From the NCBI GenBank assembly GCA_963666115.2, contig CAXXET010000004.1, forward strand, positions 472,712-536,711: a stretch of 64,000 nucleotides of DNA, written 5' to 3'. Shown in pieces: positions 279 to 58,209 of the stretch (position 1 is the first letter of the stretch; every line of letters starts with the position of its first letter). Made by a program: the position numbers and the translations under genes. The notes below the pieces were generated by a model. The model was not told the origin of the DNA, made no database searches, and saw only the letters and a program-made list of their open reading frames with translations. Source of the DNA: Dehalococcoidia bacterium (lineage in GTDB: Bacteria; Chloroflexota; Dehalococcoidia; UBA6926).

Positions 279-395
279 GGCCGTTTCCTTTCCCTACCGG
301 GCGCATCTCTATCTGCCCATGATAACGCTCGCCAGTGGCAAAACGTTACGGCATCCGGCAGAATTCCGTCGCGTCCGGGCGCGGGGGGGCAGAAT

Positions 396-1589: not shown

Positions 1590-1655
1590 TACGCCCTCCG
1601 CCTCTCATTCCCCATGACGCGGCTCGCTGCCGCGCTGCGCGGAGAGTAGCACAAA

Positions 1656-1700
1656 GCGTCTCCCGCTGCCGACTCGTAAGCAGTCAGCAGCGGGAGACGC
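1656..1700 (-). terminator. Intrinsic terminator downstream of proX
   Basis: GCGTCTCCCGCTGC...GCAGCGGGAGACGC inverted repeat followed by TTTGT on the minus strand. Confidence 0.7.
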
Positions 1701-1713
1701 CAAGGATTCGGGT

Positions 1714-2760: not shown

Positions 2761-2837
2761 GTGTTCCTCCCCTCCCTTTCCGGAGTTTATTTTAGCGAAT
2801 CCTTGCAAGCATTTCAGAGTGAGCAGGTTTAGGCCCT

Positions 2838-3911: not shown

Positions 3912-5106
3912 TGTCGTCTCCGTTTTCTACCCCGCCGGACAGAAGCTCGTCGCGCCGGATTGCGCCGACGAGGACGCCGTCTTCAACGACGGCCAGAGGA
4001 TACGGCGCATCCTCGACAATCGGGAGGAGTTCATCGAGCGATGTATCCGGGTCAACGATGACGGGGTCCTGCAGCGCGGCGTCTTCCAGGGTCTCCTTAT
4101 GGCGGTCGGCGAGCGATTCCACTTCCTGCTTGGTGAGCATCCCCTTCAGCCTGGAGCCTGCGTCCACCACGAAAAGGGCGTCGGTGTTCATGTTCTCCAT
4201 GATGACGAGCGCCGCGCCGGGGCCCTGCCGCGTGTGGATCGCGTCCGTCGCCTCGCTCATCACGGTGCGGGCCTGGATGAGGCGCGTCGAGGAGACATCG
4301 CGGACGAATTCGGTCACGTAGTCGTCGCTCGGCATGGAGACGATCTCATCCGGCGTTCCCTCCTGGATGATCTCGCCGTCGCGCATGATGGCAATGCGGT
4401 TTCCGAGCTTGATGGCCTCATTGAGATCATGGGTGATGAAGATGATGGTCTTGTGCAGGTCTTCCTGGAGCGTGAGCAGTTCATCCTGCATCTGGCGGCG
4501 GATGAGGGGGTCGAGTCCGCTGAACGGCTCATCCATGATGAGGACGGAGGGATCGACGGCAAGGGCGCGGGCAAGGCCGACGCGCTGCTGCATTCCGCCG
4601 CTCATCTCACGCGGGAAATAGCGTTCCCAGCCGCTGAGGCCGACCTTCTCAACCGTTTCATGGGCGACGCGGAGCCGCTCATCCTTGTCAACGCCCCTGA
4701 CCTCAAGGCCGTAGGCGACGTTCTCCAGGACGCGGCGATGCGGCAGAAGGGCGTAGTTCTGGAAGACCATCGCGACGGTCGACCGCCTGAACTCCATGAG
4801 TCGATCCTGCGAGAGCTGGAGGATGTCCTCGCCCTCATAGAGGAGCTCACCGGCGGTGGGGTCGCTCAACCTGATGAGCGCCCTGGCAAGAGTGGACTTG
4901 CCGCTCCCGGAGAGTCCCATCAGGACGTAGACCTGGCCGCGGTCAACGCTGAAGGACACGTCGCGCAGCGCGGTGACGAGTCCCAACTCCTCCTGTATCT
5001 CCGCCCGTGACTTTTCGGTGTGCTCAGGATCGAGAGCCCGTTCGGGATTGTCCCCAAACACTTTCCATAGATTCTTCGCGTCTATCTGACGTTCAGTTTC
5101 GATCAT
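3904..5106 (-). CDS. proV: Glycine betaine/proline ABC transporter ATP-binding protein with CBS pair
   Basis: GLSGSGKST, MSGGMQQRVGLARAL, DEPFSGLDPLIR; likely start MIETERQ. Confidence 0.92.
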   Translation of the reverse strand: MIETERQIDAKNLWKVFGDNPERALDPEHTEKSRAEIQEELGLVTALRDVSFSVDRGQVYVLMGLSGSGKSTLARALIRLSDPTAGELLYEGEDILQLSQDRLMEFRRSTVAMVFQNYALLPHRRVLENVAYGLEVRGVDKDERLRVAHETVEKVGLSGWERYFPREMSGGMQQRVGLARALAVDPSVLIMDEPFSGLDPLIRRQMQDELLTLQEDLHKTIIFITHDLNEAIKLGNRIAIMRDGEIIQEGTPDEIVSMPSDDYVTEFVRDVSSTRLIQARTVMSEATDAIHTRQGPGAALVIMENMNTDALFVVDAGSRLKGMLTKQEVESLADRHKETLEDAALQDPVIVDPDTSLDELLPIVEDAPYPLAVVEDGVLVGAIRRDELLSGGVENGDDSG

Positions 5107-5269
5107 AACGTTGGCGCGCCAACTATCCTCCCCCCCTGATTGCGACAACATACTGTAACGGATTAGCCCGCAACCGTCCAATCGCGCGCCGGAGAGCAAC
5201 TATTGGCGTCTTCATCCGATTCATGGCAAACTATACGGTGAGTCTTATAGGAATAACCAGGAGGGACAC

Positions 5270-6346
5270 ATGACGAGCAGACTTATGCTACTTGCGCTAG
5301 CCGTCGTGGCAGGCCTGATGATCTTTGCGGCCTGCACAACCGAGGAAGACACACCTGTGCCGGCCGACGAGCCAACAGCGGCGCCGGTGGAAGAGGAGAT
5401 GAGCAGGCTCGCCACCGTCATACAGCGTGGCAAGGTCATCTGCGCGATCAACACGGTGCTTCCCGGATTCGGCGCGCTGGACGCGAACGGAAACAACGTG
5501 GGCTTTGACATCGATCAGTGCCGCGCCGTTGCAGCCGCCGTTCTTGGCGACGCCAACGCGGTTGAGTATCGACAGACCACCGCCGCGCAGCGCGGGCCGG
5601 TCATGCAGTCCGGCGAAGTCGATCTGATGGTTCGGAATACAACGTGGACGACTTCCCGCGACGCGACGTGGGGCAACTTTGCCCAGACGACGTTCTACGA
5701 CGGGCAGGGATTCATGGTCCCGGCAGACCTGGGCGTGAGCGATCCGGTTGAGCTGGACGGCTCCAGCATCTGCGTGCTCCAGGGCACGACGACGGAGCAG
5801 AACCTCCAGGACTTCATCAACCAGAACGGCCTGGACATCGAGGTTCTCACGTTCAGCGAGCAGCCGCCGCTGACGGAGGCATACCTGGCGGGACAGTGCC
5901 AGGGTGAGACGACCGACAAGTCCGGCCTCGTCTCGCTCCGCACGACGTATGACAACCCCAATGACCACGTCATCCTGGGCGCCACGATTTCCGAGGAGCC
6001 TCTTGGCCCCGTCGTGCCGCACGGCGACGACCAGTGGTACGACATCGTGAAGTCCGTCATCGCCATCCTGATCTACGCGGAGGCATTCGGGATCGATTCG
6101 ATGAGCGTGCCGACGGCAGCGACGGGCGACACAGCAGTTGACCGGCTGCTTGGCCTGGGCGACACGAGCTGGGGCCAGGAAGCGCTGGGCCTGGAGCAGG
6201 ACGTGGGACAGAAGGTCATCCGGCAGGTTGGCAACTACGGCGAGATCTACGACCGGCACCTGACGCCGCTGGGCGTCACCCGTGAGGGCAGCCGCAACGC
6301 GCTGTGGCTGAACGGCGGAGAGATCTACGCCGCTCCGCTCCGATAG
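5270..6346 (+). CDS. aapJ: General L-amino acid ABC transporter substrate-binding lipoprotein (AapJ/BztA)
   Basis: GFDIDQCRAVAAAV, RNTTWT, FYDGQGFMV, VGNYGEIY; lipobox FAAC. Confidence 0.92.
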   Translation: MTSRLMLLALAVVAGLMIFAACTTEEDTPVPADEPTAAPVEEEMSRLATVIQRGKVICAINTVLPGFGALDANGNNVGFDIDQCRAVAAAVLGDANAVEYRQTTAAQRGPVMQSGEVDLMVRNTTWTTSRDATWGNFAQTTFYDGQGFMVPADLGVSDPVELDGSSICVLQGTTTEQNLQDFINQNGLDIEVLTFSEQPPLTEAYLAGQCQGETTDKSGLVSLRTTYDNPNDHVILGATISEEPLGPVVPHGDDQWYDIVKSVIAILIYAEAFGIDSMSVPTAATGDTAVDRLLGLGDTSWGQEALGLEQDVGQKVIRQVGNYGEIYDRHLTPLGVTREGSRNALWLNGGEIYAAPLR

Positions 6347-6453
6347 ACAGCGGGACAAGCGCGTTCTGACGGCGTCCTGACGGACGCGACAGGAGCGAAT
6401 AAAGCGGGGGGCCGAATGCACGGCATTCGGTTCCCCGCTATTCTATTGGCGAG

Positions 6454-7665
6454 ATGGCGGAACCAACACGAAGCTTCCTGACCTACCAGGGCATCCCTGT
6501 CTGGCGCCACGCGGTCATCATCAAGTGGGCGCTGCAGATGGTATCGGCTGTCGCCGTCGTCACGCTGGTCTTCTGGTTCTTCTCCAACATCGCGTTCGCG
6601 ATCAATGACCGCGAGATTCCCTTCGGGTTCTCGTTCCTGAGCCGCGCGTACGGCACGCCGGTTCCGGAGCACGTGCTGCCGTATGAATCGACGGACAGCT
6701 ACGGCTACGCCCTTATCGTCGCCGCCGTCAACACAATCGTGTTGGCAATTGCGGGCGTGATCCTGGCAATTCTTCTCGGCACGCTCATCGGCATTGCGCG
6801 CATCTCCTCCAACTGGCTGGTCTCGCGCCTCGCCCTCGCCTACGTGGAGTTCTTCCGCAACGTGCCGCTGCTGGTGCAGCTTCTTTTCTTCTTCTACTTC
6901 ATCCTGCTCCTGCCGCCGCTTGCGGAGAGCTACAACCCGTTCGGCGTCATGTACATCAACAACGCGGGCTTTGCCGTGCCGTCGCCCATGCCCGCGGGCG
7001 AAACGGCATTCGCGATTGCGTGGGGCGTCGTGGCACTGGTCGGCATCGCGGCGGGGTTCGCTGCGCACAGGTCCCTCTCACGGCGGGAGACGCTGACGGG
7101 GCGGGTGTCCTATCCGTTGACGGCGGGCATCGCTGTGGCCGCCGGCATCGCGTTTGCAGCGTGGCTCGCGATTTGGGCGCTCGCCGGGGAGGCGCCGCTT
7201 GCAATCAGCACGCCCGAGCCCGAGGGGCGATTCGGCAGGATCGAGGGCGGTCTGCGCGTCCGGTCCGGGGCGATCGTGATGCTGATCGGGCTGGTCATGT
7301 ACACGGCGTCGTTCATTGCGGAGATCGTGCGGGCGGGCATCCAGTCCGTGGGGCGGGGCCAAACGGAGGCGGCGTCCGCGCTGGGCCTCAGGCCGGTCGG
7401 CGTGCTCCGCAACATCACGTTCCCGCAGGCGCTGCGGGTCATCGTTCCCCCGCTCATCAGCCAGTGCCTGAACCTGACGAAGAACAGCAGCCTGGCGGCG
7501 GCAATCGGCTTTGCCGACCTGACGAACGTGGCGATTACGATGACGCAGACCGCGCCCGCGATCTCCATCTTCCTGATCATCATGCTGGCGTACCTGCTGA
7601 TGAGCCTGGCGTGGTCGGCGGTGGGCAACCTGTACAACTGGCGCACGCGGATAGTGGGGACGTAG
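6454..7665 (+). CDS. aapQ: General L-amino acid ABC transporter permease (AapQ/BztB)
   Basis: YVEFFRNVPLLVQ, IAEIVRAGIQSVGRGQTEA, LNLTKNSSL. Confidence 0.9.
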   Translation: MAEPTRSFLTYQGIPVWRHAVIIKWALQMVSAVAVVTLVFWFFSNIAFAINDREIPFGFSFLSRAYGTPVPEHVLPYESTDSYGYALIVAAVNTIVLAIAGVILAILLGTLIGIARISSNWLVSRLALAYVEFFRNVPLLVQLLFFFYFILLLPPLAESYNPFGVMYINNAGFAVPSPMPAGETAFAIAWGVVALVGIAAGFAAHRSLSRRETLTGRVSYPLTAGIAVAAGIAFAAWLAIWALAGEAPLAISTPEPEGRFGRIEGGLRVRSGAIVMLIGLVMYTASFIAEIVRAGIQSVGRGQTEAASALGLRPVGVLRNITFPQALRVIVPPLISQCLNLTKNSSLAAAIGFADLTNVAITMTQTAPAISIFLIIMLAYLLMSLAWSAVGNLYNWRTRIVGT

Positions 7666-7668
7666 ACG

Positions 7669-8928
7669 ATGGCGACCGCACGAATGACACCTGGCGCGGA
7701 CCTGCCTCCGCCGCGCATGACGACGGGGCCGGCCGGCTGGGCCAGGGCTAACCTGTTCAGCTCGCCAGGCAACAGCGCCACGACCATCCTCGTGGGAGCG
7801 GTGAGCCTGTACCTGATCTGGCAGTTCCTGGGGTGGGCGCTTGGCCCGGCGGACTGGTCTGTCATCCCGACGCTGGGCGGCACGCTCATCATCGGCCAGT
7901 ACAACTCGGAGACGGTGTGCCCCTCGCAGGACTGCTTCTGGCGCCCGCAGGTGTCACTGCTCATCGGGGTGACGTTCTTCGGCATCCTGTGGGCAGTGGC
8001 GGCGACGGCGCTGGTGCGGGGCGTGGCGCTGACGGTGGCGTTCGTCTCGGCGGGAATGGCGTTGATGCCCCTGCCCTTCAGCGAGATGGGCATGGACGTG
8101 CGGCTGCTGCTACTGCTGAACATCCCCGCCGTCTTCCTGGGCTACTGGCTGGGCAAGCACACGCCGGTCAGTTCCACCAGGAACCTGATCATCATCGCGT
8201 TTGCCGGTTTCCTGTTGGTATACATCCTGTTGGGCGGCACAGTTTTCGGTTTCTTCGACGTTCCCGGTCTCCAGGTTGTGCCGTCGCGGTACTGGGGCGG
8301 GTTGACGCTGAACCTGCTGCTGGCGGCGGGCGGCATCACGGCAAGCCTGCCGCTCGGCATCCTCCTGGCGCTTGGGCGGCGCAGCAACCTGCCGTTCGTC
8401 AAGTTCACGTGCGTGGGCGTCATCGAGTTCTTCCGGGGCGTGCCGCTCATCACCCTGCTCTTCATGTCGCAGACGCTCCTGCCGCTGGCATTCCCGCGCG
8501 ATTTCCCGCTGGACGAGGTGATGCGGGCGGGAATCGTCATCACCGTGTTCAGCTCCGCGTACATGGCGGAGAACATCCGGGGCGGGCTGCAAAGCCTGCA
8601 CCGGGGGCAGACGGAGGCGGCGCGCGCGCTGGGCATGCCGCCGTGGAACACGACGATCTTCATCACGCTGCCGCAGGCGCTCCGCAACGTGGTGCCGGCC
8701 ATCGTCGGGCAGTTCATCAGCCTGTTCAAGGACACGACGCTGGTCTTCATCATCGGTATGTTCGACATCCTGCAGATCGGAAACTCGTTCATCGGCAGCA
8801 ACCGGGAGTTCCTGGACAACAGCCGCGAGCTCTTCCTGTTCATCGCGCTGGTCTTCTGGACGATCAATTACGGCATGTCATACGTGAGCCGGCGGGTTGA
8901 AGAGACCCTCGGCGTGGGACGCAGGTAG
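7669..8928 (+). CDS. aapM: General L-amino acid ABC transporter permease (AapM/BztC)
   Basis: [41 protein letters not shown]. Confidence 0.9.
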
Positions 8929-8962
8929 GCGCGGCGACGCCGGCGAGAGGGAGGCGAGACAG

Positions 8963-9733
8963 ATGACCACCAACGGGGACGCGCAGGCGAACGGCGAGGT
9001 TGAGGACATCATCATCGCGCGCGACGTGCATAAGTGGTTCGGCTCGTTCCATGCCCTGCGCGGGGTGTCCACGACGGTGAAACGCGCGGAAATCGTCGTC
9101 ATCCTCGGCCCGTCCGGCTCGGGAAAGTCGACGTTCATCCGCACGATCAACCGGCTGGAGGAGCACCAGCGCGGCGAGATCATCGTGGACGGCATCACGC
9201 TCTCGAACGACATCCGCAACATCGACGCCATTCGCAGCGAGGTGGGGATGGTGTTCCAGTCGTTCAACCTGTTCCCACACCTGACGGTGCTGAACAACAT
9301 CACGCTCGCGCCGATGAAGGTGCGGCACACGCCGCGCGCGGAGGCGGAGGAGACGGCGATGGGCCTGCTGGAGCGCGTGGGCATCCCAGAGCAGGCGCTG
9401 AAGTACCCGGCGGAGTTGTCCGGCGGCCAGCAGCAGCGCGTGGCGATTGCGCGGGCGCTGGCGATGCAGCCGCGGATCATGCTGTTCGATGAGCCGACGT
9501 CCGCGCTCGATCCGGAGATGATCAAGGACGTGCTGGACGTGATGCGGGAACTGGCGCACTCCGGCATGACGATGCTGGTGGTGACGCACGAGGTGGGGTT
9601 CGCGCGGGAGGTGGCGGACCGGGTGATCATGTTCGATGAGGGCATGATCGCGGAAGAAGGCCCGCCCAACGAGTTCTTCACCAACCCGAAGAGTGAGCGG
9701 GCGAAGCTGTTTTTGTCACAGATTTTGCACTGA
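8963..9733 (+). CDS. aapP: Amino acid ABC transporter ATP-binding protein (AapP/BztD)
   Basis: [35 protein letters not shown]; ATG after GGGAGG. Confidence 0.92.
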
Positions 9734-9790
9734 GGGGGGGACGCAACTCCCTATACCTTTCCAGGGTTTGCCCAAGACAACGGGTTCCCG

Positions 9791-9844
9791 CGACCTATTG
9801 ACACGTTCAGGTCGAGAGGGTAAGATATTCTTACCATTGGTAAG
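9791..9844 (+). promoter_or_regulatory. Sigma70-like promoter with overlapping operator-like palindromes
   Basis: TTGACA (9798-9803), 17 nt, TAAGAT (9821-9826); CGACCT/AGGTCG flanking -35; GGTAAGA-TAT-TCTTACC (9819-9835) and CTTACCA-T-TGGTAAG (9830-9844). Confidence 0.75.
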
Positions 9845-9853
9845 GACGTGCTC

Positions 9854-10147
9854 ATGGACAAGCAAGAAATCGTCAGCAAAGTAATCGAGACTGTGGCCGA
9901 TGTGCAGACAGTCGGTGGACGGCCCAGCGCAGGCATAGATGCATCTACGTGCCCGATCGGAGGAGTAGAGGGCTTCGACAGCCTCAATGGAGTGGAGGCA
10001 ACCGTCATGCTCTCGGGGGCCTTCGGGGTTGATCTGCCTGATGACTATAACCCTTTCGTCTCCAACGACGGGAGGCGAGCGCTGACGATTAGTGAGATTG
10101 CTGACAGTCTGAGTGCCTACCTGAAGCCGGAGGTTGTATCCAGATGA
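9854..10147 (+). CDS. Acyl-carrier-protein-like small acidic protein
   Basis: 97 aa; GFDSL phosphopantetheine-site-like motif followed by helix II-like VEATVMLSGAFGVDLP and C-terminal TISEIAD. Confidence 0.7.
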   Translation: MDKQEIVSKVIETVADVQTVGGRPSAGIDASTCPIGGVEGFDSLNGVEATVMLSGAFGVDLPDDYNPFVSNDGRRALTISEIADSLSAYLKPEVVSR

Positions 10148-24671: not shown

Positions 24672-25985
24672 TCAACTCCTGGTCTGGCCGTCTCCGACAA
24701 TGGTCCACTTGTAGGACGTCAACTCCCGCAGCCCCATCGGCCCGCGCGCGTGCAGCTTGTTGGTGCTGATGGCAACCTCCGCGCCCAGCCCCAGCTGCCC
24801 GCCGTCCGTGAACCTGCTTGACGCGTTGACGATCACCGCCGCCGCGTCCACCTCGTCCAGAAACCGCGCTGCGTTCTCGTCGCTCGTCGTCAGGATCGCC
24901 TCCGTGTGGCCGGAGCCGTATTCTGCGATGTGCTCAAGCGCCTCGTCGATGGAATCGACCACCTTGACAGCGGCGGTGAGGGAGAGGAACTCGCGGCCCC
25001 AATCGTCCTCGACGGCGGTGATGACCCGCGTGGGAGGCTCGGGCCCGATCAGCGAGAGAGCGCGCCTGTCCGCGTGAACCTCCACGTTATCCCGCGCCCA
25101 TGCGCTCACGATCGCAGGCAAGACCTGCGGGGCGGCCTGCGCATGGACGAGCAGCGTGTCCAGCGCATTGCACACCGTGGGACGCTGCACCTTGGCGTTG
25201 TAGGCGATGGCAACGGCCTGCTCAACATCGGCGCCGGCGTCAACGTACGTGTGGCATACGCCGATGCCGCCGGTCACGACGGGTATCCGCGCGTTGTCAC
25301 GCACGAAGCGGATGAGCGTGTCGCTGCCGCGCGGGATCAAAAGGTCTATCCCGCCCTCGTACACCAGCATCTGGCCGACAATGGCCCGGTCCGTGGACTC
25401 GATGATCTGCGCGGCGTCGCGCGGCAGCCCGGCATCCTCCAATGCCTCGCGCACGATACCCGCGAGCGTCGTCGTGGAGTTGATGGCCTCTTTGCCGCCC
25501 CGCAGGATGACGGCGTTGCCGGACTTGATGCAGAGGGCGGCGATGTCGATGGTGACGTTCGGGCGGCTCTCATAGACGGCGGCGATGACGCCGAGCGGCA
25601 CGCGCCGGCGGCAGACGCGGAGGCCGTTCGCCAGAGTCGATGCATCGAACTCCTCGCCGATGGGGTCGGGCAAGTTGATCGTAGCGCGCACGTCGGCGGC
25701 CATTCCCCGCACGCGCTCCTCGTTCAGAAGGAGACGATCCAGCAGGACGTCCGACATGCCGTCTGCCTGTGCCGCCTCATAGTCCCGCGAGTTGGCCGCG
25801 ACGATCTCGCCGGAACGCTCCTCCAGCAGGGCCGCAATACGCTCAAGCGCGGCGTCCTTCTGCCCGGTGGACGCCCGCGAAAGAGGGCGGCTCGCCGTGC
25901 GCGCCGCCTGCGCCTTGCTGACAAGCTCCTCGGAAAGCTCGCCTGTTTCCGTTGTTCGTACCGCAGTTGCCGTCATCGGGTTCAC
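24672..25985 (-). CDS. proA: Gamma-glutamyl phosphate reductase
   Basis: YESRPNVT, LRGGKEA, VCNALDTLL, KLHARGPMGL. Confidence 0.95.
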   Translation of the reverse strand: MNPMTATAVRTTETGELSEELVSKAQAARTASRPLSRASTGQKDAALERIAALLEERSGEIVAANSRDYEAAQADGMSDVLLDRLLLNEERVRGMAADVRATINLPDPIGEEFDASTLANGLRVCRRRVPLGVIAAVYESRPNVTIDIAALCIKSGNAVILRGGKEAINSTTTLAGIVREALEDAGLPRDAAQIIESTDRAIVGQMLVYEGGIDLLIPRGSDTLIRFVRDNARIPVVTGGIGVCHTYVDAGADVEQAVAIAYNAKVQRPTVCNALDTLLVHAQAAPQVLPAIVSAWARDNVEVHADRRALSLIGPEPPTRVITAVEDDWGREFLSLTAAVKVVDSIDEALEHIAEYGSGHTEAILTTSDENAARFLDEVDAAAVIVNASSRFTDGGQLGLGAEVAISTNKLHARGPMGLRELTSYKWTIVGDGQTRS

Positions 25986-26066: not shown

Positions 26067-26660
26067 TTATGCTTCGCGCAGGTTATCGAGCAGCCGCTTG
26101 GCGTGGGGCGACGCGGCGGCCACCTTGTCCGGGTCGATTACTCCGATCAACTCAAAGCCATCCCTACCCTTGCGATATTCGCCCCTTGCCGTGCGTCGGG
26201 TGGCATTGGCCAAACCGCTGAGCACGTCATCCTTTGGGATTTCCTCTATGGCAGCCGGATTGCCAGGCAAGCTGTTCGGCCGGAACTCGTTGCCGAAGAA
26301 AGTGCTAAGGGCGTCACGATCGGCGAGAAACCACGATTCCATCACTTGAACCATGAGGTGGCAGTCGTCGCCCGCCGACCCCTGTGGCCGCTGCCATCCG
26401 TCCTGTTCGCGAAGGTGCTGCCATGGGTCAGCGGCTGTTACCGGCCCCTCTGCATCGACAAGCAGCATTGCGTCGCTATTGTCCCTGTCAACGGCGTTCG
26501 AAAAATCGTCGTAAGCGCTTTCCCGGCTGCCACACAGATTGACTCGTGGCATCCTGCCCTGCAGGTTAGCCTTCTCAAAGAACTTTTGAAACGCCTGCCG
26601 CTCAGCTGAATTGACTCGCCTGCGACTGCTGCCGCCCTCTACGAAGATCGTCGCACTCAC
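26067..26660 (-). CDS. DUF4276-like (TOPRIM-like) protein
   Basis: IFVEGG, LLVDAEG, MVQVMESWFLAD, YRKG; overlaps the ATPase stop. Confidence 0.75.
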   Translation of the reverse strand: MSATIFVEGGSSRRRVNSAERQAFQKFFEKANLQGRMPRVNLCGSRESAYDDFSNAVDRDNSDAMLLVDAEGPVTAADPWQHLREQDGWQRPQGSAGDDCHLMVQVMESWFLADRDALSTFFGNEFRPNSLPGNPAAIEEIPKDDVLSGLANATRRTARGEYRKGRDGFELIGVIDPDKVAAASPHAKRLLDNLREA

Positions 26661-27859
26661 CAGCGGTTGCCCCCGATGTGACCGCGGCTCCACAACTCGC
26701 CCAGGCTGTATTTCTCAAGCCAGTCCTTGAGATCATCCTTATCAAGCCGTCGTAGCTCAGTACCGTTGTCACCCCTTTCCGTGACAATGACGGACTCAGG
26801 GGTGTCAGACAGGGCATCGACGAGGATGTCTGAGTGTGTCGTGACGACTAGTTGAGTACGCTCTGAGGTTTCGCGCAGGAGCTTGGCGATTTCAGGGATG
26901 ATGTCGGGGTGCAGGCCCTTCTCCGGCTCTTCAAGGCAGATGAGGGGCGGCAGTTCCGGTTGACAGAGGATCGCTAAGAGGCACAGGTACTGGAGGCTCC
27001 CGTCTGACATCCGCATAGCGGGGATTGGAGCATCCAGGCCATCCTCGTGAAATGCCGTGTGGATGAATGATCCCGTCACAACGGTGCGAATGTCCTTTAT
27101 CCGCGGATAGAACTCACGCAACCGCCCAACGATCTCATCTTTCGCTTTCGGGCTGCTCTCCATGCTGTTGAGTACCGTGCTTAGATTGGCACCGCTCTCC
27201 ATCAGCGAACCAGGCATGCCCGGGGTTTGGGGGCGCCGGATTTCAGAGAACCGCCCAGTGTCAAATGACCCGTAAGATCGAATACCCATAAATTCGTCGG
27301 ACAGCAAAAATATCTCCGGATAAGCGATTGACTCACGAAGTTGGACAAGTATCGACTTGTCCGAATCGAAGTGAGGCGCCGTCAATTCGGTTGTCTCTCG
27401 TGATTGGGAGTCCCAGTCCGTTCGAACCGCCGTTGCGGCACGCTTGTCCCTTCTATACTCGTAGAGAGTCTCCCAATATGCCGTAGAGCGGCTGCCCTTC
27501 CGCTTGATCCATATGCGCTCACTGGCTATATCCACTCCGAGAGAAAGCAACGCCTTCACCAAGGACAACTCGTACCGTATGCCGCCAATATACGGAGGAT
27601 TGACTCCTATTGTCGCCACTCCTGTACGACCCTGCCCCTTCCAGAGCCACTCATCAATTCCCCCACCATCATGTATCGCCTTGTCCAAATCAGTAGCCGC
27701 CGCCTTTAGCAGGCCAACGGCGTGGATGAAGTTGGACTTGCCTGTCGCGTTCGGTCCGATGAGGACGTTGAGCGGCTCCAGGTCGATGGCCGTTTCTTCC
27801 GGCCCGAACGAGAGGATGCCGCTCAGCCGCAGCGCGCTAATCAGCCTGTTGTCAGCCAA
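26657..27859 (-). CDS. ABC/AAA_21-type ATPase (COG4637-like)
   Basis: LIGPNATGKSN, MSDGS, CLEEPEKGLHP, VTTHS, LGELW. Confidence 0.85.
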   Translation of the reverse strand: MADNRLISALRLSGILSFGPEETAIDLEPLNVLIGPNATGKSNFIHAVGLLKAAATDLDKAIHDGGGIDEWLWKGQGRTGVATIGVNPPYIGGIRYELSLVKALLSLGVDIASERIWIKRKGSRSTAYWETLYEYRRDKRAATAVRTDWDSQSRETTELTAPHFDSDKSILVQLRESIAYPEIFLLSDEFMGIRSYGSFDTGRFSEIRRPQTPGMPGSLMESGANLSTVLNSMESSPKAKDEIVGRLREFYPRIKDIRTVVTGSFIHTAFHEDGLDAPIPAMRMSDGSLQYLCLLAILCQPELPPLICLEEPEKGLHPDIIPEIAKLLRETSERTQLVVTTHSDILVDALSDTPESVIVTERGDNGTELRRLDKDDLKDWLEKYSLGELWSRGHIGGNRW

Positions 27860-27950: not shown

Positions 27951-29129
27951 TCACAACAGCGTCAGGTGGTCGCGGTGGATCATTTCTTCGCCGTGGTAGG
28001 CGGCGGTGTTGGCGTTGTCTTCAGACTGGAAGAATTGGCGGACCTCTGCGTTGTGGAGGCCGGCGAGGCGGCGCATGAGGTCTGCGGGATAGGAGACCGC
28101 GCCACGCGCGACGCTCGTGTCATCGGGGGCGACGATTTCGACGATGTCTCCTGTGGTGAAATCGCCGCGCACCTCCCGCACGCCGACAGCGAGGAGGCTC
28201 GACGTGCCCCGCCGCAGCGCCTTTGCGGCGCCCTCATCCACGACGACCTGTCCGCGCACGAAGAGGGGGCCGAGGGAACGCCTGCGGGCAGACGGACGCC
28301 GCCGTCCCCATGCCGCAAACCGCGTCCCGATCTCCTCGCCGCGCACGATTCGCAGCAGCGCATCCGGGGCATGGCCGTTCGCAATCACCACCGACGTGCC
28401 CCAGGACGTGGCCTCCGCCGCCGCCCGTACCTTTGACGCCATGCCGCCGCGCCCCTGTTCACCCGGCATCTCGGCGGCCATGGCCAGCGTCTCGTCCGTC
28501 ACGCGGTCGACGTGATGAATGAGCGCCGCGTTGGGGTTGCTGCGGGGATCACTGTCGTAGAGGCCGTCGCGATCCGTGAGGAGAACGAGCATATCCGCCG
28601 CCATGAGATTCGTGAGGGCGGCTGAAAGGGTGTCGTTGTCGCCGAGCGTTTCGCTCAGTTCCTCCGAGGCGACGACGTCGTTCTCATTGATGATGGGAAT
28701 CACGCCGAATCCCAGCAGCTCACGCAGGGTGCGGCGAATATTGACGGCGGAACGGCCGGCGGTGAAGTCTGCGCGGGTAATAAGAGCCTGGCCGACGATG
28801 AGCCCCTGATCCGCGAATGCAGCCTCCCACGAACGCATGAGGCGGTGCTGGCCAATCGCCGCGAGGGCCTGCAGCGTCGCGACGCCCCGTCCCCTGCCCT
28901 CCAGGCCGATGATGCTGCGTCCAAGGGCGACTGCCGCAGACGTGACAACGATCACCTGCGATTGGGCGGCCACGATGTCCGCGACCTGTTTCGCGATGGA
29001 CGCGATCAGGCCTTCATCAAGTTGATCGCCGCCCCCGGTCAGCACGCCGGTGCCGAGCTTGGCGATGATCAACCGGTTGCGCGGCAGCGCCGCGTTCTGA
29101 TGCGTGTCTGATTCGGTGTGATTGGCCAC
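27951..29129 (-). CDS. proB: Glutamate 5-kinase
   Basis: AKLGTGVL, PIINEND, GDNDTLSA, GGMASK, PUA domain. Confidence 0.95.
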   Translation of the reverse strand: MANHTESDTHQNAALPRNRLIIAKLGTGVLTGGGDQLDEGLIASIAKQVADIVAAQSQVIVVTSAAVALGRSIIGLEGRGRGVATLQALAAIGQHRLMRSWEAAFADQGLIVGQALITRADFTAGRSAVNIRRTLRELLGFGVIPIINENDVVASEELSETLGDNDTLSAALTNLMAADMLVLLTDRDGLYDSDPRSNPNAALIHHVDRVTDETLAMAAEMPGEQGRGGMASKVRAAAEATSWGTSVVIANGHAPDALLRIVRGEEIGTRFAAWGRRRPSARRRSLGPLFVRGQVVVDEGAAKALRRGTSSLLAVGVREVRGDFTTGDIVEIVAPDDTSVARGAVSYPADLMRRLAGLHNAEVRQFFQSEDNANTAAYHGEEMIHRDHLTLL

Positions 29130-30488: not shown

Positions 30489-30761
30489 ATGACAACGCAA
30501 GATGAACTGTTGGAGCGAATCGGCTTCAATCCGGACATACTGGGCGGCAAGCCAATCATTCGAGGAATGCGCATCGCCGTTGAGCACGTTCTCGGCCTTC
30601 TTGCGGCCGGCATGTCCCCGGACGACATTCTTCGAGACTATGAAATCCTGGAACCGGAGGACATTCAGGCCTGCCTGGTGTACGCCCACCGCTCACTCAA
30701 GGGTGAGCAGGTTTTCGCGCTCATCAAAGCCGCAGACCCCGCGAAACAGCCAATAGCGTAG
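30489..30761 (+). CDS. DUF433 antitoxin-like protein
   Basis: NPDILGGKPIIRGMRI, EDIQACLVYA. Confidence 0.88.
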   Translation: MTTQDELLERIGFNPDILGGKPIIRGMRIAVEHVLGLLAAGMSPDDILRDYEILEPEDIQACLVYAHRSLKGEQVFALIKAADPAKQPIA

Positions 30762-30765
30762 CAAC

Positions 30766-31122
30766 GTGCGCTTTCTCCTTGACGCCTCAACGTCTGCCCG
30801 ACTATTGCGTCCTCTACTCGAGGGCCTTGGGCACGACGTGAAAGCCGTAGTGGATTTCGACCGTCACGCGCAGGACGAGCATATCCTGGAGATTGCGGTA
30901 GCCGAAGACCGCATCCTCATCACCCTGGACAAAGATTTCGGCGATCTGGTCTTTGCCCGTGGGTTCGATCATCGGGGCATCGTTCGGCTTTTCGACGGGG
31001 ACGCGGAGCAACAGGCAAGCGCGATGGCGCGGCTGCTGGAAGAATCCGCAGATGTACTCCATAGACGGGCCATGGTTGTCATTGACCCTGACAGAGTGCG
31101 GATAGGACGAACCGGCGCCTAG
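30766..31122 (+). CDS. DUF5615/VapC45-like PIN toxin
   Basis: MRFLLD, GHDV, DEHIL, RILITLDKDFGDL. Confidence 0.85.
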   Translation: MRFLLDASTSARLLRPLLEGLGHDVKAVVDFDRHAQDEHILEIAVAEDRILITLDKDFGDLVFARGFDHRGIVRLFDGDAEQQASAMARLLEESADVLHRRAMVVIDPDRVRIGRTGA

Positions 31123-31234: not shown

Positions 31235-32083
31235 ATGACGAGGATCGTCAGTATTGAAGAGGCGGGAAATCGATTCAGGGACGGGATGCTCATCGCCACC
31301 ACGGGCGGCAATGACCGCTCCTCGATGGCGCTGACGCGGGAAATCGTGCGGCGGGGCATCAAGGATCTCACCCTCGTTTTCACACCTGCGGGCGGTCTCC
31401 AGGGCGACATGCTCATCGGCGCGGGCGCCGTCACGGCCATCGACACCGGCTCCCTCACCTTCGGCGAGCGCGGCTTTGCGCCGAACTACCGCCGTGTTGC
31501 CAAAGAGGGAGGCATCGCCGCGCTGGACAGCACCTGACCCGTCACGCTCACAGGGCTCCAGGCTGGAGCCAACGGCGTGCCGTTCATCCCGTCCCGCGGC
31601 GTGATCGGCACCGATCTGGTCAACCTCCATCCCAACTGGAAGATCATCGAAGACCCCTACAACGAGGGCCATGACATCCTGCTGGTTCCGGCTATCCGCC
31701 CGGACATCGCCATGATCCACGCCTTCAAGGCGGACCGGAACGGCAACGTCCTTGCGCCGAGCCACGAGGATCGCATGGTTGCGCAGGCAAGTGACAAGGT
31801 GCTCGTGACCGTCGAGGAGATCGTCGACTATGACCTCTCCGAAGACCCGCGCGGCGGCTTCCTGGTTCCGTGGCCGTTCGTCAGCCTCGTCGTCCACGCG
31901 CCACAGGGGTCCCACCCCGGCGGCATGCAGCCGTACTACGAGGCGGACAACGAGCACTTCGACCGGTACATGGAGGCGTCCAGAACTGCAGACGGGTTCA
32001 ACGCGTACCTCGACGAGTTCGTGCGCCGGCACACCGAGGACGAATACCGCGAGATGGCGGCGCGCGTCGCCGTGCCTGCCTAA
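31235..32083 (+). CDS. Family I (glutaconate-type) CoA-transferase subunit A with in-frame UGA at 31535-31537, putative selenocysteine
   Basis: ORFs 31235-31537 and 31577-32083 are one frame: ...APNYRR...ALDST*PVTLTGLQAGANGVPFIPSRG...DPY...VPAIRPD...ADRNGN; hairpin right after the UGA. Confidence 0.8.
31538..31575 (+). promoter_or_regulatory. Putative bacterial SECIS element
   Basis: GGCTCCA(31554-60)-GGC-TGGAGCC(31564-70); G-starting loop 23 nt after the UGA; lower pairing CCGT/ACGG. Confidence 0.6.
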
Positions 32084-32110
32084 GCAGACGGACAGAGCCG
32101 CACAAACTCG

Positions 32111-32854
32111 ATGCCGTTTCAGTCGGACGACTACACCATCGGCGAGTTGATGGCCACCCGCATCGCGCGGGAGGTTCGAGACGACACATACGTTAGCTCC
32201 GGCGCGGCATCGCCCGTGCCGATGGCGGGTGTTCTCCTGGCGCAGGAGACGCACGCCCCGGACATGATTTACGTCCCCATTGGCGCGTCTAACCCTGAAC
32301 TCAACCTCATCAGCGGAAAGGAAGTCTTTGACCTCGCCCAGCGTGGCAGGCTGGACATCTTCTTTCTCGGCGGAGCGCAGATTGACGGCCACGGCAACAT
32401 CAACCTGACCACCATCGGCGACCATGACAGGCCGGACGTGCGCCTCCCGGGCGCGGCGGGCTCCGGGATGCTCTACTTCATGACGAATCGCATCATCCTG
32501 TTCCGCCTGGAGCACACGCCGCGCGTCTTCGTGGAGAACGTGGACTTCATCACGTCCGCCGGCTCCAGCGGGGAACGAATTGAGCGCCCCGGCGGCCCTC
32601 ATATGCTCATCACCAACATCTGCGTGATGATGTACCAGAGTGATGACAAGAAGTTCCGGCTTGAGTCCGTCCACCCCGGCGTCACCGTCGATGAGGTGAA
32701 GGACAACACCGGGTTCGAGTTTCTCATTCCCGACGACGTGCCGGTGACAACTGTTCCGACGCCGGAGCAGCTTGGGCTGCTCCGCGGCTCCATCAAGGAC
32801 CGCGTCGGCGGCGAGTATCCGGGCTTCGTCGCGTCAGGGGGATTTGGCGGATAA
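32111..32854 (+). CDS. Family I CoA-transferase subunit B
   Basis: DIFFLGGAQIDGHGNINL, RLPGAAGS, VDFITS, SVHPGVT...NTGF. Confidence 0.88.
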   Translation: MPFQSDDYTIGELMATRIAREVRDDTYVSSGAASPVPMAGVLLAQETHAPDMIYVPIGASNPELNLISGKEVFDLAQRGRLDIFFLGGAQIDGHGNINLTTIGDHDRPDVRLPGAAGSGMLYFMTNRIILFRLEHTPRVFVENVDFITSAGSSGERIERPGGPHMLITNICVMMYQSDDKKFRLESVHPGVTVDEVKDNTGFEFLIPDDVPVTTVPTPEQLGLLRGSIKDRVGGEYPGFVASGGFGG

Positions 32855-32936: not shown

Positions 32937-32970
32937 CAAGGGCACGTTTGCGCGTGCCCTTGTGCTTTTT
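32937..32970 (+). terminator. Intrinsic terminator or attenuator upstream of guaB
   Basis: CAAGGGCACG-TTTGCG-CGTGCCCTTG followed by TGCTTTTT. Confidence 0.65.
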
Positions 32971-33038
32971 GCGGCACACGGGGCAGGGCTGAACGGCGCC
33001 GCGTTGCGGCGCCGCGTCGTTTAAGGGGGTAGGTCGAA

Positions 33039-40551: not shown

Positions 40552-40603
40552 CCATCCATTGTAGTGTGTCGCGCGTATGGGCGGTACAATTGGAGGACGC
40601 GGT

Positions 40604-40679
40604 GGGGCTGTAGCTCAGTTGGGAGAGCGCTTCAATGGCATTGAAGAGGTCAGGGGTTCGACTCCCCTCAGCTCCACCA
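40604..40679 (+). tRNA. tRNA-Ala(GGC)
   Basis: GGGGCTGTAGCTCAG...CTTCA-ATGGCAT-TGAAG...GGTTCGACTCCCCTCAGCTCCACCA, 76 nt. Confidence 0.97.
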
Positions 40680-40702
40680 GCCAGATTGATTTGAGGGTTG
40701 TT

Positions 40703-41581
40703 ATGCCAATACCGGAGTCGCAGCTGAGCAGGTGGTCTGACCATGGCTCTCAGAGGAAGGCGATCAGCACACATGAGAAGATCAGAAATGTGCTCGATAA
40801 CCACAATTGGCCGGATGGCATGACGAGGGAATTCAGCCTGCAAGGCTCTTACAGCAGCGACACCAACCTGCCCAGTGGCAGCGATGTGGATGTTGTATTA
40901 GAGCTTACTTCGACGTTCTACGCGGACGTCTCGGGGCTCAGTGAGTGGACGCAACAGCCGATCCTTTCTGGACTAGTCGACCCACAGTGGACGTGGAACG
41001 ACTTTCGCCGGGAGACTTTGAAGGCGTTGGAGAATGGCTTCGGCAAACAGGCAGTAAGCCAAGGGAATAAGACCATCAAGGTCAAGGAGGCCTCGACGAG
41101 GCTGCGAGCCGACGTGTTGGTATGTAAGGGCTACAGAAAATACGCGAGCACCTACCACTTCGTCGACGGTATCAATTTTTATGCGCGGCGGGACAAGCGA
41201 TGGATCGTCAACTTCCCGAAACTCCACGACGAGAACGGTGCCGCCAAGAATCGTCGGACCAGTGACCGCTTCAAGCGGACGGTTCGGATGTTCAAGAAGG
41301 CGCGAAATTATCTCGTATCAAATGGCCGAATCCGGCGAGAACTAGCCCCGTCATACTTCATCGAGTGCTTGCTGTACAACGCCCCCGACTGGATGTTCAA
41401 GACTGGATTTCAGGCCACGTATAGCGACATCGTCAACTGGATGGTTCAGAACGACATGAGCCGACTCATGTGCCAGAACGGGCAAGTTCCCCTCTTCAGC
41501 GATTCACCCGATCAGTGGTCGCTGCGGGATGCGCAGAGTTTCGGCAACGCCCTCGTAGACCTTTGGAACAACTGGAGATAA
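40703..41581 (+). CDS. CBASS cGAS/DncV-like nucleotidyltransferase (CdnE-like)
   Basis: LQGSYSSDTN..GSDVDVV, GNKTIKV, NFPKLH..NG..KN, FKRTVRMFK, APSYFIECLLYN. Confidence 0.88.
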   Translation: MPIPESQLSRWSDHGSQRKAISTHEKIRNVLDNHNWPDGMTREFSLQGSYSSDTNLPSGSDVDVVLELTSTFYADVSGLSEWTQQPILSGLVDPQWTWNDFRRETLKALENGFGKQAVSQGNKTIKVKEASTRLRADVLVCKGYRKYASTYHFVDGINFYARRDKRWIVNFPKLHDENGAAKNRRTSDRFKRTVRMFKKARNYLVSNGRIRRELAPSYFIECLLYNAPDWMFKTGFQATYSDIVNWMVQNDMSRLMCQNGQVPLFSDSPDQWSLRDAQSFGNALVDLWNNWR

Positions 41582-55785: not shown

Positions 55786-58209
55786 CTACCGCAAAACCCC
55801 CATCCTCTCCAACTCTCCCCGCCGTTCTACGGACAACCCCAGCACCGTGTCAAACACGTAATCGTTCTGTTGGCCCTTTGTTGGGCATGGCTGGCCCGCG
55901 TTGCCGGGGGTATCCGGGAGATTGACGTCGATGCCCTGGTGCTCCATCAGCCCTGCGTCCGCGTGATTGGCCTCCACGATAGCCGCCGGCCGACCTCGCA
56001 AGTGCGGATCAACGTAGAGCGTCTCGCCGTTGGCAACATATGTGGCCGGAACCCCGGCCTGCTGCAATATCCGCATCGCGACGCGCGGCGTGTACTGCTT
56101 CGTCCACTCGCCGATATTGGCGTCCAACTCTTCCTTGTTGGCGATGCGCGCCTTCATCGTGGCGAATCGATCATCGTTGGCCCATCCCGGGCTCCCCATC
56201 GCCCCGACAAGCGCCTGCCACTGCTCCTCTGTCTGAACCTCGATCGCGCACCATTCATCGAAGCCGATGCACGGATACACGTCGTGCGGCGCGTAGAACT
56301 CGCTGCGATTGCCTGCGGGCGGCGGGTTGTGGCCGTTGATCATATAGTCCATGTACGCGACGGTCAGCAGGTGCGCCCCGCCCTCCACCTGCGCAAGCTC
56401 GATATACTGCCCTTCGCCCGTGCGGTCGCGGTGCTCCAGCGCGGCGGCAACGGACAGCGCGCCAAAGATGCCCGCGATATAGTCCGGGAACGGCATCTTG
56501 ATGCGCGTGTCCATCGGCGCGTCCGGGTGCCCCCACAGGTTCGTGATGCCGGACACGCCCATGATCTGCTGCCCGTAGCAGAAATACGTGCTGAGCGGCC
56601 CCGTATTGCCCATCCCCGGCATCGCCAGCATGATGATGTCCGGCTTGACCTTGATCAGTTCGTCATAGCCCACGTTCTGCCGATCCATGACGGTCGGCCT
56701 GAAATTCTCGATGACCGCATCGCTCTTGGCGGCCAGCTCCCGGATCAACTGCTGGCCCTCCGGGGTCCGCATGTCGATGGTCGCGCTGATCTTGGCACGA
56801 TTCAGGTCCTGGAACGTCGTTTGGCCCGGAGCGCGGTTGTCGTCCAGGTCCTCCGACTCAATCTTGATGACCTCCGCGCCGAAGAAGCCGAGGAACATCG
56901 TCGCCAACGGCCCCGCGAACGCCCGCGTAAAGTCCACAACCCGGATCCCGTCTAGCGGCTTGACACTGACAGCTGCCTCTCCCCTTGGGAGAGAGCCATC
57001 CTGTCCGTCATTCCCGCGAAAGTGGGAATCCATGTCCCCCGCCCCCAACTCCGCCAGCACCTCATCCGTATGCTGCCCCAACAGCGGCGCAGTGCGGCTG
57101 GGCTGCCACGGCGTCTTGCTGAACTTGAGCGGCGGCCCCGCCGTCTTGTACGGCCCTATGACGGGATGCTCCATGTCGATGAAGAATTCGCGCTCTTTGG
57201 CATGGGCGCTGTCCGCAAATTCTCCGGGCGTCAGCACCGGCACGATGGGCATTCCGATGGCCTGCCCGCGCTCCGCGACATCATCCCTATCGACCGTTTC
57301 CATGTACTCCTGGACGAACTGGTCGATGACCTCGCGGTTCTCCTGCCGCACCTCTCGCTCCCACCACATCTCATCGGACAGCACGGGATGGTTGCCCATG
57401 AGTTCCGTCGCCATGCGCTCGAAGTGGTGGCGCATGTAGATGGACAGGTTCACGTAGCCGTCGTCGCGGGTGCGGAACGTGTTGACCGCGCCGAACGCTG
57501 AGTGGTGCCCCTCCCGCCGCGTGATCTGGTTGATATACGAATAGCGCGAGATGTAGCTGTGCTGCGCCCACAGACTGGCCTCCTGCTGTGAGACATCCAC
57601 GTGCTGGCCGTGGCCAATGACACGGCGTGCCCGGATTGCCAGCACCGCCCCGTATGCCGCGTGTATGCACGCCAACTGCGTGACCATCTCAAACGGGGCC
57701 ATGACCGGCGGACGGGTATCGTCGCCGTTCGCGAACATCATGCCCGCGCTCGCCTGCGCGATAAGATCACCGCCCTCATATCCGGCATGAGGCCCGTTCT
57801 GACCAAACGGCGTGATGGACACATAGACCAGATTCGGATTGGCCACTTTCAGATCGTCATAGCCAAGACCGATAGCCGCTAAGACACCCGGTTTAAAGTC
57901 CTCAACGAGGATGTCTGACCGCGCAGCCAGATTGGCGATAGCCTCTCGATCTGACTCCGTATTGATATCGAGCGTCACACCGCGCTTGGAACGGTTGGCA
58001 TGAATGAACCGAAGGCTGCGCTCAGGATGCTCGATATTTCCCGCGAACGGCGGCAGCATCCGAGCCGGATCGCCGTCCGGCGGCTCCACCTTGATAACGT
58101 CCGCGCCCATGTCCCCCAACGCCCGCGCGCAGTGCGCCGCCAGGTACGAGGTCAGGTCCAGAACGCGAAGGCCGGAGAGGGGGCCGGGATGATTGGCGCC
58201 GTTGCTCAT
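55786..58209 (-). CDS. Double-domain family III CoA-transferase (CaiB/BaiF)
   Basis: PLSGLRVLDLT...GADVIKVEPP and PLDGIRVVDFT...GAEVIKIE. Confidence 0.92.
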   Translation of the reverse strand: MSNGANHPGPLSGLRVLDLTSYLAAHCARALGDMGADVIKVEPPDGDPARMLPPFAGNIEHPERSLRFIHANRSKRGVTLDINTESDREAIANLAARSDILVEDFKPGVLAAIGLGYDDLKVANPNLVYVSITPFGQNGPHAGYEGGDLIAQASAGMMFANGDDTRPPVMAPFEMVTQLACIHAAYGAVLAIRARRVIGHGQHVDVSQQEASLWAQHSYISRYSYINQITRREGHHSAFGAVNTFRTRDDGYVNLSIYMRHHFERMATELMGNHPVLSDEMWWEREVRQENREVIDQFVQEYMETVDRDDVAERGQAIGMPIVPVLTPGEFADSAHAKEREFFIDMEHPVIGPYKTAGPPLKFSKTPWQPSRTAPLLGQHTDEVLAELGAGDMDSHFRGNDGQDGSLPRGEAAVSVKPLDGIRVVDFTRAFAGPLATMFLGFFGAEVIKIESEDLDDNRAPGQTTFQDLNRAKISATIDMRTPEGQQLIRELAAKSDAVIENFRPTVMDRQNVGYDELIKVKPDIIMLAMPGMGNTGPLSTYFCYGQQIMGVSGITNLWGHPDAPMDTRIKMPFPDYIAGIFGALSVAAALEHRDRTGEGQYIELAQVEGGAHLLTVAYMDYMINGHNPPPAGNRSEFYAPHDVYPCIGFDEWCAIEVQTEEQWQALVGAMGSPGWANDDRFATMKARIANKEELDANIGEWTKQYTPRVAMRILQQAGVPATYVANGETLYVDPHLRGRPAAIVEANHADAGLMEHQGIDVNLPDTPGNAGQPCPTKGQQNDYVFDTVLGLSVERRGELERMGVLR
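56977..57032. repeat. Two palindromic elements translated in-frame in the inter-domain linker
   Basis: CCGTCATTCCCGCGAAAGTGGGAATCCA (57005-32, encodes MDSHFRGNDG) and CTCTCCC-CTT-GGGAGAG (56977-93). Confidence 0.75.

Follow-up and report, generated by a model that had tools for sequence, protein, structure and literature searches.

Does a UGA codon in the middle of a bacterial gene end translation or is it read as selenocysteine (Sec), and what would Sec do in an enzyme with the fold of a coenzyme A (CoA)-transferase? This question is raised by a locus from a Dehalococcoidia bacterium. The stretch of DNA analysed here, referred to as the window, covers 64,000 nucleotides (nt) of contig CAXXET010000004.1, and the locus consists of two adjacent genes, A and B (Table 1), the first of which carries an in-frame TGA and had been proposed as a candidate selenoprotein gene in a first-pass annotation made from the letters alone. 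The best explanation of the evidence as a whole is a Sec residue, decoded through SelB and a selenocysteine insertion sequence (SECIS), in an enzyme that has the CoA-transferase fold but is probably not a transferase. We put the probability of this reading, which draws on sequence comparison, at roughly 0.85.

An in-frame UGA in a CoA-transferase-fold gene

The TGA is the sole interruption of the gene A frame. Translation table 11 cuts the gene into two open reading frames (ORFs), 31235–31537 (100 aa) and 31577–32083 (168 aa), the second opening at GTG 31577. Read through, codons 98–102 give D-S-T-U-P (U, Sec), and the read-through translation confirms the description in the first-pass annotation of a single frame broken by TGA alone, in D-S-T-stop-P. 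Gene A scores 52 bits against Pfam PF01144 (CoA_trans), above the cut-off of 23. Gene B, of 247 aa, begins 27 nt after gene A and is followed, eighty-odd bases 3′ of its end, by a terminator-like hairpin.

Table 1 Features of the A–B locus, with positions in the window
Feature	Position	Strand	Basis
Gene A, alpha subunit, Gct/IpdA/AibA-like CoA-transferase fold	31235–32083	+	282 codons with UGA read through; ATG at 31235 with GGAGGA just 5′; TAA at 32081–32083
UGA codon 101, predicted to be read as Sec	31535–31537	+	Column is TGA in 115 loci, TGC/TGT in 71
Possible lower helix of the SECIS-type element, 31543–31548 with 31574–31579	31543–31579	+	RNAfold minimum free energy structure
SECIS-type hairpin over the L-Q-A-G-A codons	31554–31570	+	7-bp stem, loop GGC (5′ arm 31554–31560, loop 31561–31563, 3′ arm 31564–31570); 94.2% paired cells, covariation
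Gene B, beta subunit without the class I catalytic glutamate	32111–32854	+	PF01144, 77 bits versus cut-off of 23
Terminator-like hairpin and T-run ending the A–B unit	32937–32972	+	11-bp stem, then TGCTTTTTGC

As in Gct-like PF01144 enzymes of two subunits, both genes score above threshold, lie side by side and match the fold, and by homology A and B would form a textbook two-subunit pair. More specific assignments were not forthcoming: the NCBIfam models for acetate and 3-oxoacid CoA-transferases place A and B far below their cut-offs, NCBIfam returned sub-threshold matches only and no specific model for the family, and matches in the ESM Atlas went no further than generic ‘CoA transferase subunit A’ clusters. 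The earlier label ‘CoA-transferase alpha subunit’ therefore stands for the fold of gene A and does not extend to its activity.

Conservation of the UGA column

In a collection of 5.8 billion proteins, the nearest nine relatives of gene A (58–99% identity) are 162–180 aa long and contain only the part after the TGA, and full-length relatives start at about 47% identity. Column 101 is Cys in 77 of 77 full-length homologues in the alignment, bearing out the D-x-T-C-P that the first-pass annotation had given for homologues. When 41 genomes of the class were searched in six frames, 31 gave a match, and in 26 of these the match holds exactly one TGA, at the identical column in every case; the 26 comprise all 22 genomes of the window's genus (that of the window among them), another two genera of its family, and two more families at 45% and 37% identity. 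A scan of GTDB with one genome per species yielded 80 loci, nine with TGA, all titled Dehalococcoidia, and 71 with TGC or TGT, mostly from Alpha- and Betaproteobacteria together with four Paenibacillus. A metagenome scan, whose queries were peptide patterns from the TGA-type alignment and were thus biased to the TGA type, gave TGA in 80 of 80 loci.

Aligning homologues at this column had been suggested as a check, and its outcome is that the UGA is kept: across 189 readable loci the codon is TGA in 115 (26 Dehalococcoidia genomes, nine GTDB contigs and 80 metagenome contigs), TGC in 54, TGT in 17 and another codon in three distant paralogues, with TAA or TAG in none of the 189. These locus sets partly overlap; distinct protein rows number 85 of the Sec type and 71 of the Cys type.

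If the TGA were a true stop, gene A would be a pseudogene, or a split gene with two separately made pieces. Annotated proteins look that way, since the C-terminal piece is all that is annotated in the nine nearest matches, and public annotation fragments the family further afield as well, with more than 100 clusters of pieces of about 176 aa in one search (U-G clade, described below). TGA is moreover an ordinary stop in this genome: by a crude count it ends 26 of the 72 long stop-to-stop frames in the window, and the genome is therefore not recoded. A true stop is nevertheless extremely unlikely. All 115 interrupted loci use TGA and none TAA or TAG, relatives without the interruption have an invariant Cys at that column, the restart codons picked by gene callers vary between clades, and a covarying hairpin follows the TGA solely in TGA-type genes (see below). 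Selection acts on both sides of the codon. Among 22 distinct coding sequences from the 22 species of the genus, the ratio of nonsynonymous to synonymous change (dN/dS) is 0.051 for codons 1–100 and 0.091 for codons 115–282, in keeping with the earlier impression that both halves are intact. Over the 13 codons that separate the TGA from the earliest possible restart, dN/dS is 0, that is, complete in-frame purifying selection, and synonymous change is also low there (proportion of synonymous differences, pS, 0.14 versus 0.40–0.42 elsewhere).

Read or assembly error, another concern of the first-pass annotation, is answered by contigs from independent DNA and RNA libraries that span the TGA, and a fault of a single assembly does not explain it. 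Two DNA runs, from separate marine and sponge metagenome studies, gave contigs that cross the site at 88–99% likeness; a further study contributed two sponge metatranscriptome libraries whose contigs do the same, and one RNA-library contig extends from before the TGA to the end of gene B. Among the rows listed, no difference falls at 31535–31537, which concerns bridging of the site and not letter-for-letter identity, and the RNA-library contigs are no proof of transcription. Length differences among these 88–99% relatives fall in the A–B spacer (32083–32101) and near the end of gene B.

A SECIS-type hairpin downstream of the UGA

Bacterial Sec insertion relies on a hairpin just 3′ of the UGA, and by the distance rule of bSECISearch we judged the hairpin after the TGA to be an acceptable stem–loop with an apical G. 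Its stem starts 16 nt and its loop 23 nt from the TGA, so that the 7-bp stem with a G-starting loop noted at 23 nt in the first-pass annotation is recovered, the 23 nt referring to the start of the loop.

Covariation of the stem is seen in UGA-type genes but is lacking in those of the Cys type. Among 74 distinct TGA-type sequences, the paired fraction of stem cells (94.2%) compares with 81.3% in column shuffles and is reached by 0 of 500 of them, and controls with a slid 3′ arm give 21–47%. Double-sided changes occur in three of the seven stem pairs (73 cells), with the compensatory sets G-C/A-U/U-A, G-U/C-G/A-U and U-A/C-G. In 71 genes of the Cys type these columns behave as expected by chance, with 45.3% of cells paired versus 45.2% in shuffles. 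Codon choice differs likewise: the Ala codon that closes the loop (+9) is GCT in 70 of 74 Sec-type versus 9 of 71 Cys-type sequences, and at synonymous sites of the Sec type the codon before Gln always ends in C and the Gly codon is always GGA or GGG. The Cys-type and codon controls distinguish RNA constraint from protein constraint.

A lower helix (Table 1) is possibly part of the SECIS element in the window's own clade; sequences of the genus have G-C, A-U and G-U at one of its pairs, and some have an A-C mismatch. Rfam gave no family match to the hairpin and one chance match.

Selenocysteine machinery and precedents

The genome (2.07 Mb in nine contigs, 100% complete by the tool's figure) contains selA, selB, selC and selD, as had to be asked of a candidate of this kind. 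The proteins score 539 bits (selA), 330 bits (selB) and 387 bits (selD), and the tRNA-Sec gene selC, with anticodon tca (UCA), scores 68 bits, all over curated cut-offs. As selD carries its own in-frame TGA (…C-A-G-U-A-A-K-L…; contig C6, 420976–421899), followed by two hairpins, the Sec system is evidently in use. Like the gene A hairpin, the second of these, which lies about 25 nt downstream, carries C-A-G-G at its loop, on the 5′ side.

Bacterial tRNAs for Trp or Cys are known to read through UGA, and such near-cognate decoding, or a reassigned code, would also leave gene A intact. This account is very unlikely in a genome with a complete Sec system whose selD is itself UGA-interrupted. The hairpin lies at SECIS distance, relatives have Cys and never Trp or Gly at the column, and the many window frames that end in TGA speak against reassignment. 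Gene A is thus judged very probably a real, intact selenoprotein gene.

The prototype among bacterial selenoprotein genes is Escherichia coli fdhF, which has Cys homologues and a SECIS inside its ORF. Gene A resembles genes of the fdhF type in its in-frame UGA, the hairpin just downstream, Cys homologues and selABCD in the genome; it differs in that its family, PF01144, is absent from the selenoprotein catalogues searched. Term searches of the family table of a 2026 review (PMC13188914) found no PF01144 or CoA-transferase selenoprotein, and none was found in the main text of deep-Sep (2025) and BSepDB (2026), or in the Global Ocean Sampling (GOS) survey and Haft's 2022 preprint, supplements, which might list the family, being outside the scope. 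Full-text literature searches that paired selenoprotein with CoA-transferase gave nothing relevant. The ‘DsbA-like form 2’ entry of PMC13188914 shares a DxxUP motif with gene A and was set aside, as it belongs to PF01323, a different fold.

Active site and relation to known enzymes

The structures nearest to gene A by sequence are GctA, AibA and IpdA, with E-values from 1e-20 to 1e-24 for A and B. An AlphaFold2 (AF2) model of A has a predicted local distance difference test (pLDDT) score of 94.7 and matches IpdA, GctA and AibA with Foldseek TMq values of 0.91, 0.88 and 0.83. Helix 101–112 of this model starts at residue 101, and such a helix N-terminal position may favour a reactive thiolate or selenolate.

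In class I CoA-transferases the catalytic Glu sits on the beta subunit, with GctB Glu54 as the covalent catalyst, as described in a portion of PMC5380842. Gene B, whose closest PDB chains are GctB, AibB and IpdB, has Y-V-P-I-G at the position that is Cys56 (mutated) in AibB and the catalytic Glu in Gct; the PDB includes two AibB variant chains, and exactly the residue that distinguishes them aligns with Pro56 of B or with the adjoining one-residue gap. Relatives of gene B have Pro, Ala, Ile, Val or Leu at this site, and an acidic residue that could be the catalytic Glu is absent in all 160 readable loci from two collection scans. The first-pass annotation had seen no obvious ESG-type Glu motif in the one beta subunit at hand; with no Glu at the site across relatives, the entire subfamily lacks the catalytic residue that defines a CoA-transferase.

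The alpha subunit offers a candidate in its place. Glu105 of IpdA is reportedly, from work of Crowe et al. in 2018, the catalytic base in a retro-Claisen reaction. Residue 101 of gene A aligns with high posterior to the sole position that differs between 6co6_A (Glu) and 6coj_A (Ala), and the title of PDB entry 6COJ is ‘IpdAB E105A COCHEA-CoA complex’. Because residue 101 aligns with IpdA Glu105, the earlier suggestion of a chemistry unlike that of classical family I CoA-transferases is strengthened. At column 101, the 150 best 50%-identity representatives of the wider family carry Glu (53), Cys (51), Asn (10), Gly (10) or another residue (18), or have a gap (eight, fragments). The Glu/Cys split, with its smaller Asn and Gly groups, may reflect distinct chemistries under one annotation.

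Three characterised systems frame the comparison. The first, IpdAB (COCHEA-CoA hydrolase of steroid ring catabolism; 6CO6, 6CO9, 6COJ, 6CON), is the best structural match and has the same two-subunit Gct-like fold, a beta subunit without Glu and an alpha catalytic residue at the column of residue 101. It differs in having Glu105 where the gene A family has Sec or Cys, in its sequence (about 25% identity), and in its setting, as the window locus has no steroid-catabolism neighbours. In the portion of PMC5380842 available, IpdAB is described as having no CoA-transferase activity and as carrying Gly57 instead of Glu on the beta subunit, and part of a review describes its hydrolytic opening of a ring in a CoA thioester. 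The second, AibA/AibB (3-methylglutaconyl-CoA decarboxylase of Myxococcus xanthus; 5MZW–5N03), gives the top Foldseek E-value (4e-24) and is likewise a Gct-like non-transferase that uses a cysteine; according to a part of PMC7756340, Cys56 of AibB is a general acid acting on the enolate. This Cys is on the beta subunit (Cys56B), whereas gene B has Pro56, and AibA has Gly at column 101. The third, GctAB (1POI), is the best sequence match for both subunits (2e-24 each), and relatives of gene A carry the JGI label ‘glutaconate CoA-transferase subunit A’, but GctB Glu54 is absent in gene B and GctA has Gln at column 101. A literature search joining IpdAB, AibA and ‘CoA-transferase-like’ found no paper, and a paper on itaconate made no mention of the family.

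The A–B enzyme could still be a genuine class I CoA-transferase in which the alpha Sec/Cys replaces the beta Glu as covalent catalyst, which is the first-pass idea in its strong form; it has the fold and two-subunit layout of GctAB and a reactive residue at an active-site column. We regard this as improbable. The class I ping-pong mechanism, as set out in a portion of PMC4876117, needs a carboxylate to form an acyl anhydride and then an enzyme–CoA thioester, and a thiol or selenol would be unable to form that thioester. Both characterised relatives without the beta Glu, AibAB and IpdAB, are non-transferases, and the family III CoA-transferases encoded beside some A–B pairs would make a second transferase redundant. 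The A–B enzyme is, on balance, probably not a transferase. We read its family as a putative third non-transferase branch of the fold with Sec/Cys as catalytic residue, in view of the missing beta Glu, the position of residue 101 at the IpdA Glu105 column and the precedents of IpdAB and AibAB.

Evolution of the Sec and Cys forms

A FastTree tree of 159 rows, from which duplicates and sequences covering fewer than 220 query residues had been dropped, groups the Cys type into a well-supported clade of 67 proteobacterial sequences and a second clade of four from Paenibacillus. The Sec type falls into four deep groups: the window's U-P-V-T-L clade, two small U-P clades and a U-G clade of 67 rows. 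The Sec/Cys label requires only two to three changes on this tree, whose root and sampling are too unreliable to order Sec and Cys in age. Full-length Cys forms (D-N-T-C-G) occur inside the U-G clade, up to 79% identical to a Sec form; such forms are the usual sign of recent Sec/Cys exchange, which they would suggest here.

Gene neighbourhood

The recurrent neighbour of A–B pairs is a family III CoA-transferase gene (PF02515), found in 18 of 71 Cys-type loci (18 of the 53 with long flanks) and in 10 of 89 Sec-type loci (4 of 19 with long flanks), mostly downstream on the same strand. Its presence fits, if weakly, an enzyme acting on CoA esters made by another transferase. The 28 PF02515 matches of the window's own genome are often in tandem, with two in the window at 55864–58179 (−), an extreme expansion of CoA-ester-forming enzymes. 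Genes for an acyl-CoA dehydrogenase, a 2-hydroxyacid dehydrogenase and HpaB/AbfD-like proteins lie near some other A–B loci, and no partner common to most loci was found beyond the family III CoA-transferases, by a crude clustering that used greedy ORF choice in GC-rich DNA. An IMPDH-family gene downstream of the pair was considered as a partner and rejected, as it is conserved solely in the window's own clade and lies beyond the terminator-like site.

A cultured system is offered by Paenibacillus allorhizoplanae, in which a Cys-type pair lies in an apparent operon (locus positions 331–9903). The operon encodes a family 5 solute-binding protein, OppB, OppC and OppDF-like parts of an ATP-binding cassette (ABC) system, A, B, a 197-aa protein with a weak thiol-dioxygenase-like match, a family III CoA-transferase and a DinB_2 protein.

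Directly upstream of gene A is a DUF5615/Mut7-C (PIN-like) gene (30766–31122, +), preceded by an 84-aa ORF (30502–30756) with no Pfam match; the two may form a toxin–antitoxin pair. Between a proA-like gene (24672–25985) and proB (27951–29129), which are usually adjacent, sits a defence-system-like pair of a DUF4276 gene and an AAA_21 ATPase gene (26067–27859, −). Beside metH, a 334-aa ORF (40577–41581, +) has a weak SMODS nucleotidyltransferase match (E 5.7e-5, below the cut-off).

Proposed mechanism and points against it

In the mechanism that we propose, genes A and B would supply the two subunits of a class I (glutaconate-type) CoA-transferase fold, and UGA 101 would be decoded as Sec by SelB and tRNA-Sec under the direction of the hairpin 16 nt downstream. 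The enzyme would bind an acyl-CoA, possibly a product of the organisms' many family III CoA-transferases, and the selenolate or thiolate would act as base, acid or nucleophile on the acyl group, leading to C–C or C–X cleavage, decarboxylation, or isomerisation through an enolate or a Michael adduct. More tentatively, residue 101 may be the catalytic residue of an undescribed acyl-CoA-transforming class that evolved from class I CoA-transferases, with the Sec form old and widespread in anaerobic and marine lineages and a Cys replacement in one proteobacterial clade.

Sec or Cys could alternatively have a redox role, forming a selenosulfide with CoA or another thiol, or taking part in a reductive cleavage as in glycine and proline reductase. 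Review abstracts describe nearly every known selenoprotein as a redox enzyme, and the modelled location of residue 101 at a helix N-terminus is like that of many redox cysteines; the Paenibacillus operon, with its DinB_2 thiol-transferase-like gene and the weak thiol-dioxygenase-like match, could be read in the same direction. However, no second Cys that might serve as a resolving residue appears among the columns of A or B that are at least 95% conserved, no redox partner gene is conserved beside the A–B pair, and a redox role seems unlikely.

Several observations weigh against our reading of a SelB-decoded Sec in a probable non-transferase. The case for selenium insertion is comparative, and function is deduced from one alignment column and by analogy. 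The fold of the window sequence around the hairpin (−22.4 kcal/mol) is matched by 10 of 200 shuffles (z = −1.79), and conservation of the hairpin is partly protein-driven, because its apical part overlaps the conserved Q-A-G peptide. In the window genome the pair lies among housekeeping genes (proA/proB-like, recF-like, an IMPDH-family gene, greA, DUF1015, Sir2 and metH) with no pathway context. The association with family III CoA-transferases may be partly chance, because a 2.07-Mb genome with 28 such matches would be expected to place some nearby. The 80 of 80 metagenome loci with TGA are uninformative on the Sec:Cys ratio in nature, because that set was fished with Sec-type peptide patterns.

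Implications

The gene A family is widespread and mis-annotated, and soil, freshwater, marine and sponge metagenomes contain it in abundance. Its systematic fragmentation in public annotation means that an intact enzyme is overlooked in the genome annotation and metabolic models of these organisms. Column 101, with Glu in about one-third and Cys in about one-third of representatives, is a functional switch point, and offers a handle for assigning chemistry to hundreds of genes now called ‘glutaconate CoA-transferase subunit A’. Were Sec to occupy the catalytic column of an enzyme acting on CoA thioesters, selenium biochemistry would gain a new fold and perhaps also a new type of reaction. If the tentative proposal of an acyl-CoA-transforming class holds true, its members would be the first selenoenzymes to carry out carbon chemistry of a non-redox kind on CoA thioesters; examples would be retro-Claisen cleavage, protonation or deprotonation of an enolate, and isomerisation by Michael addition and elimination.

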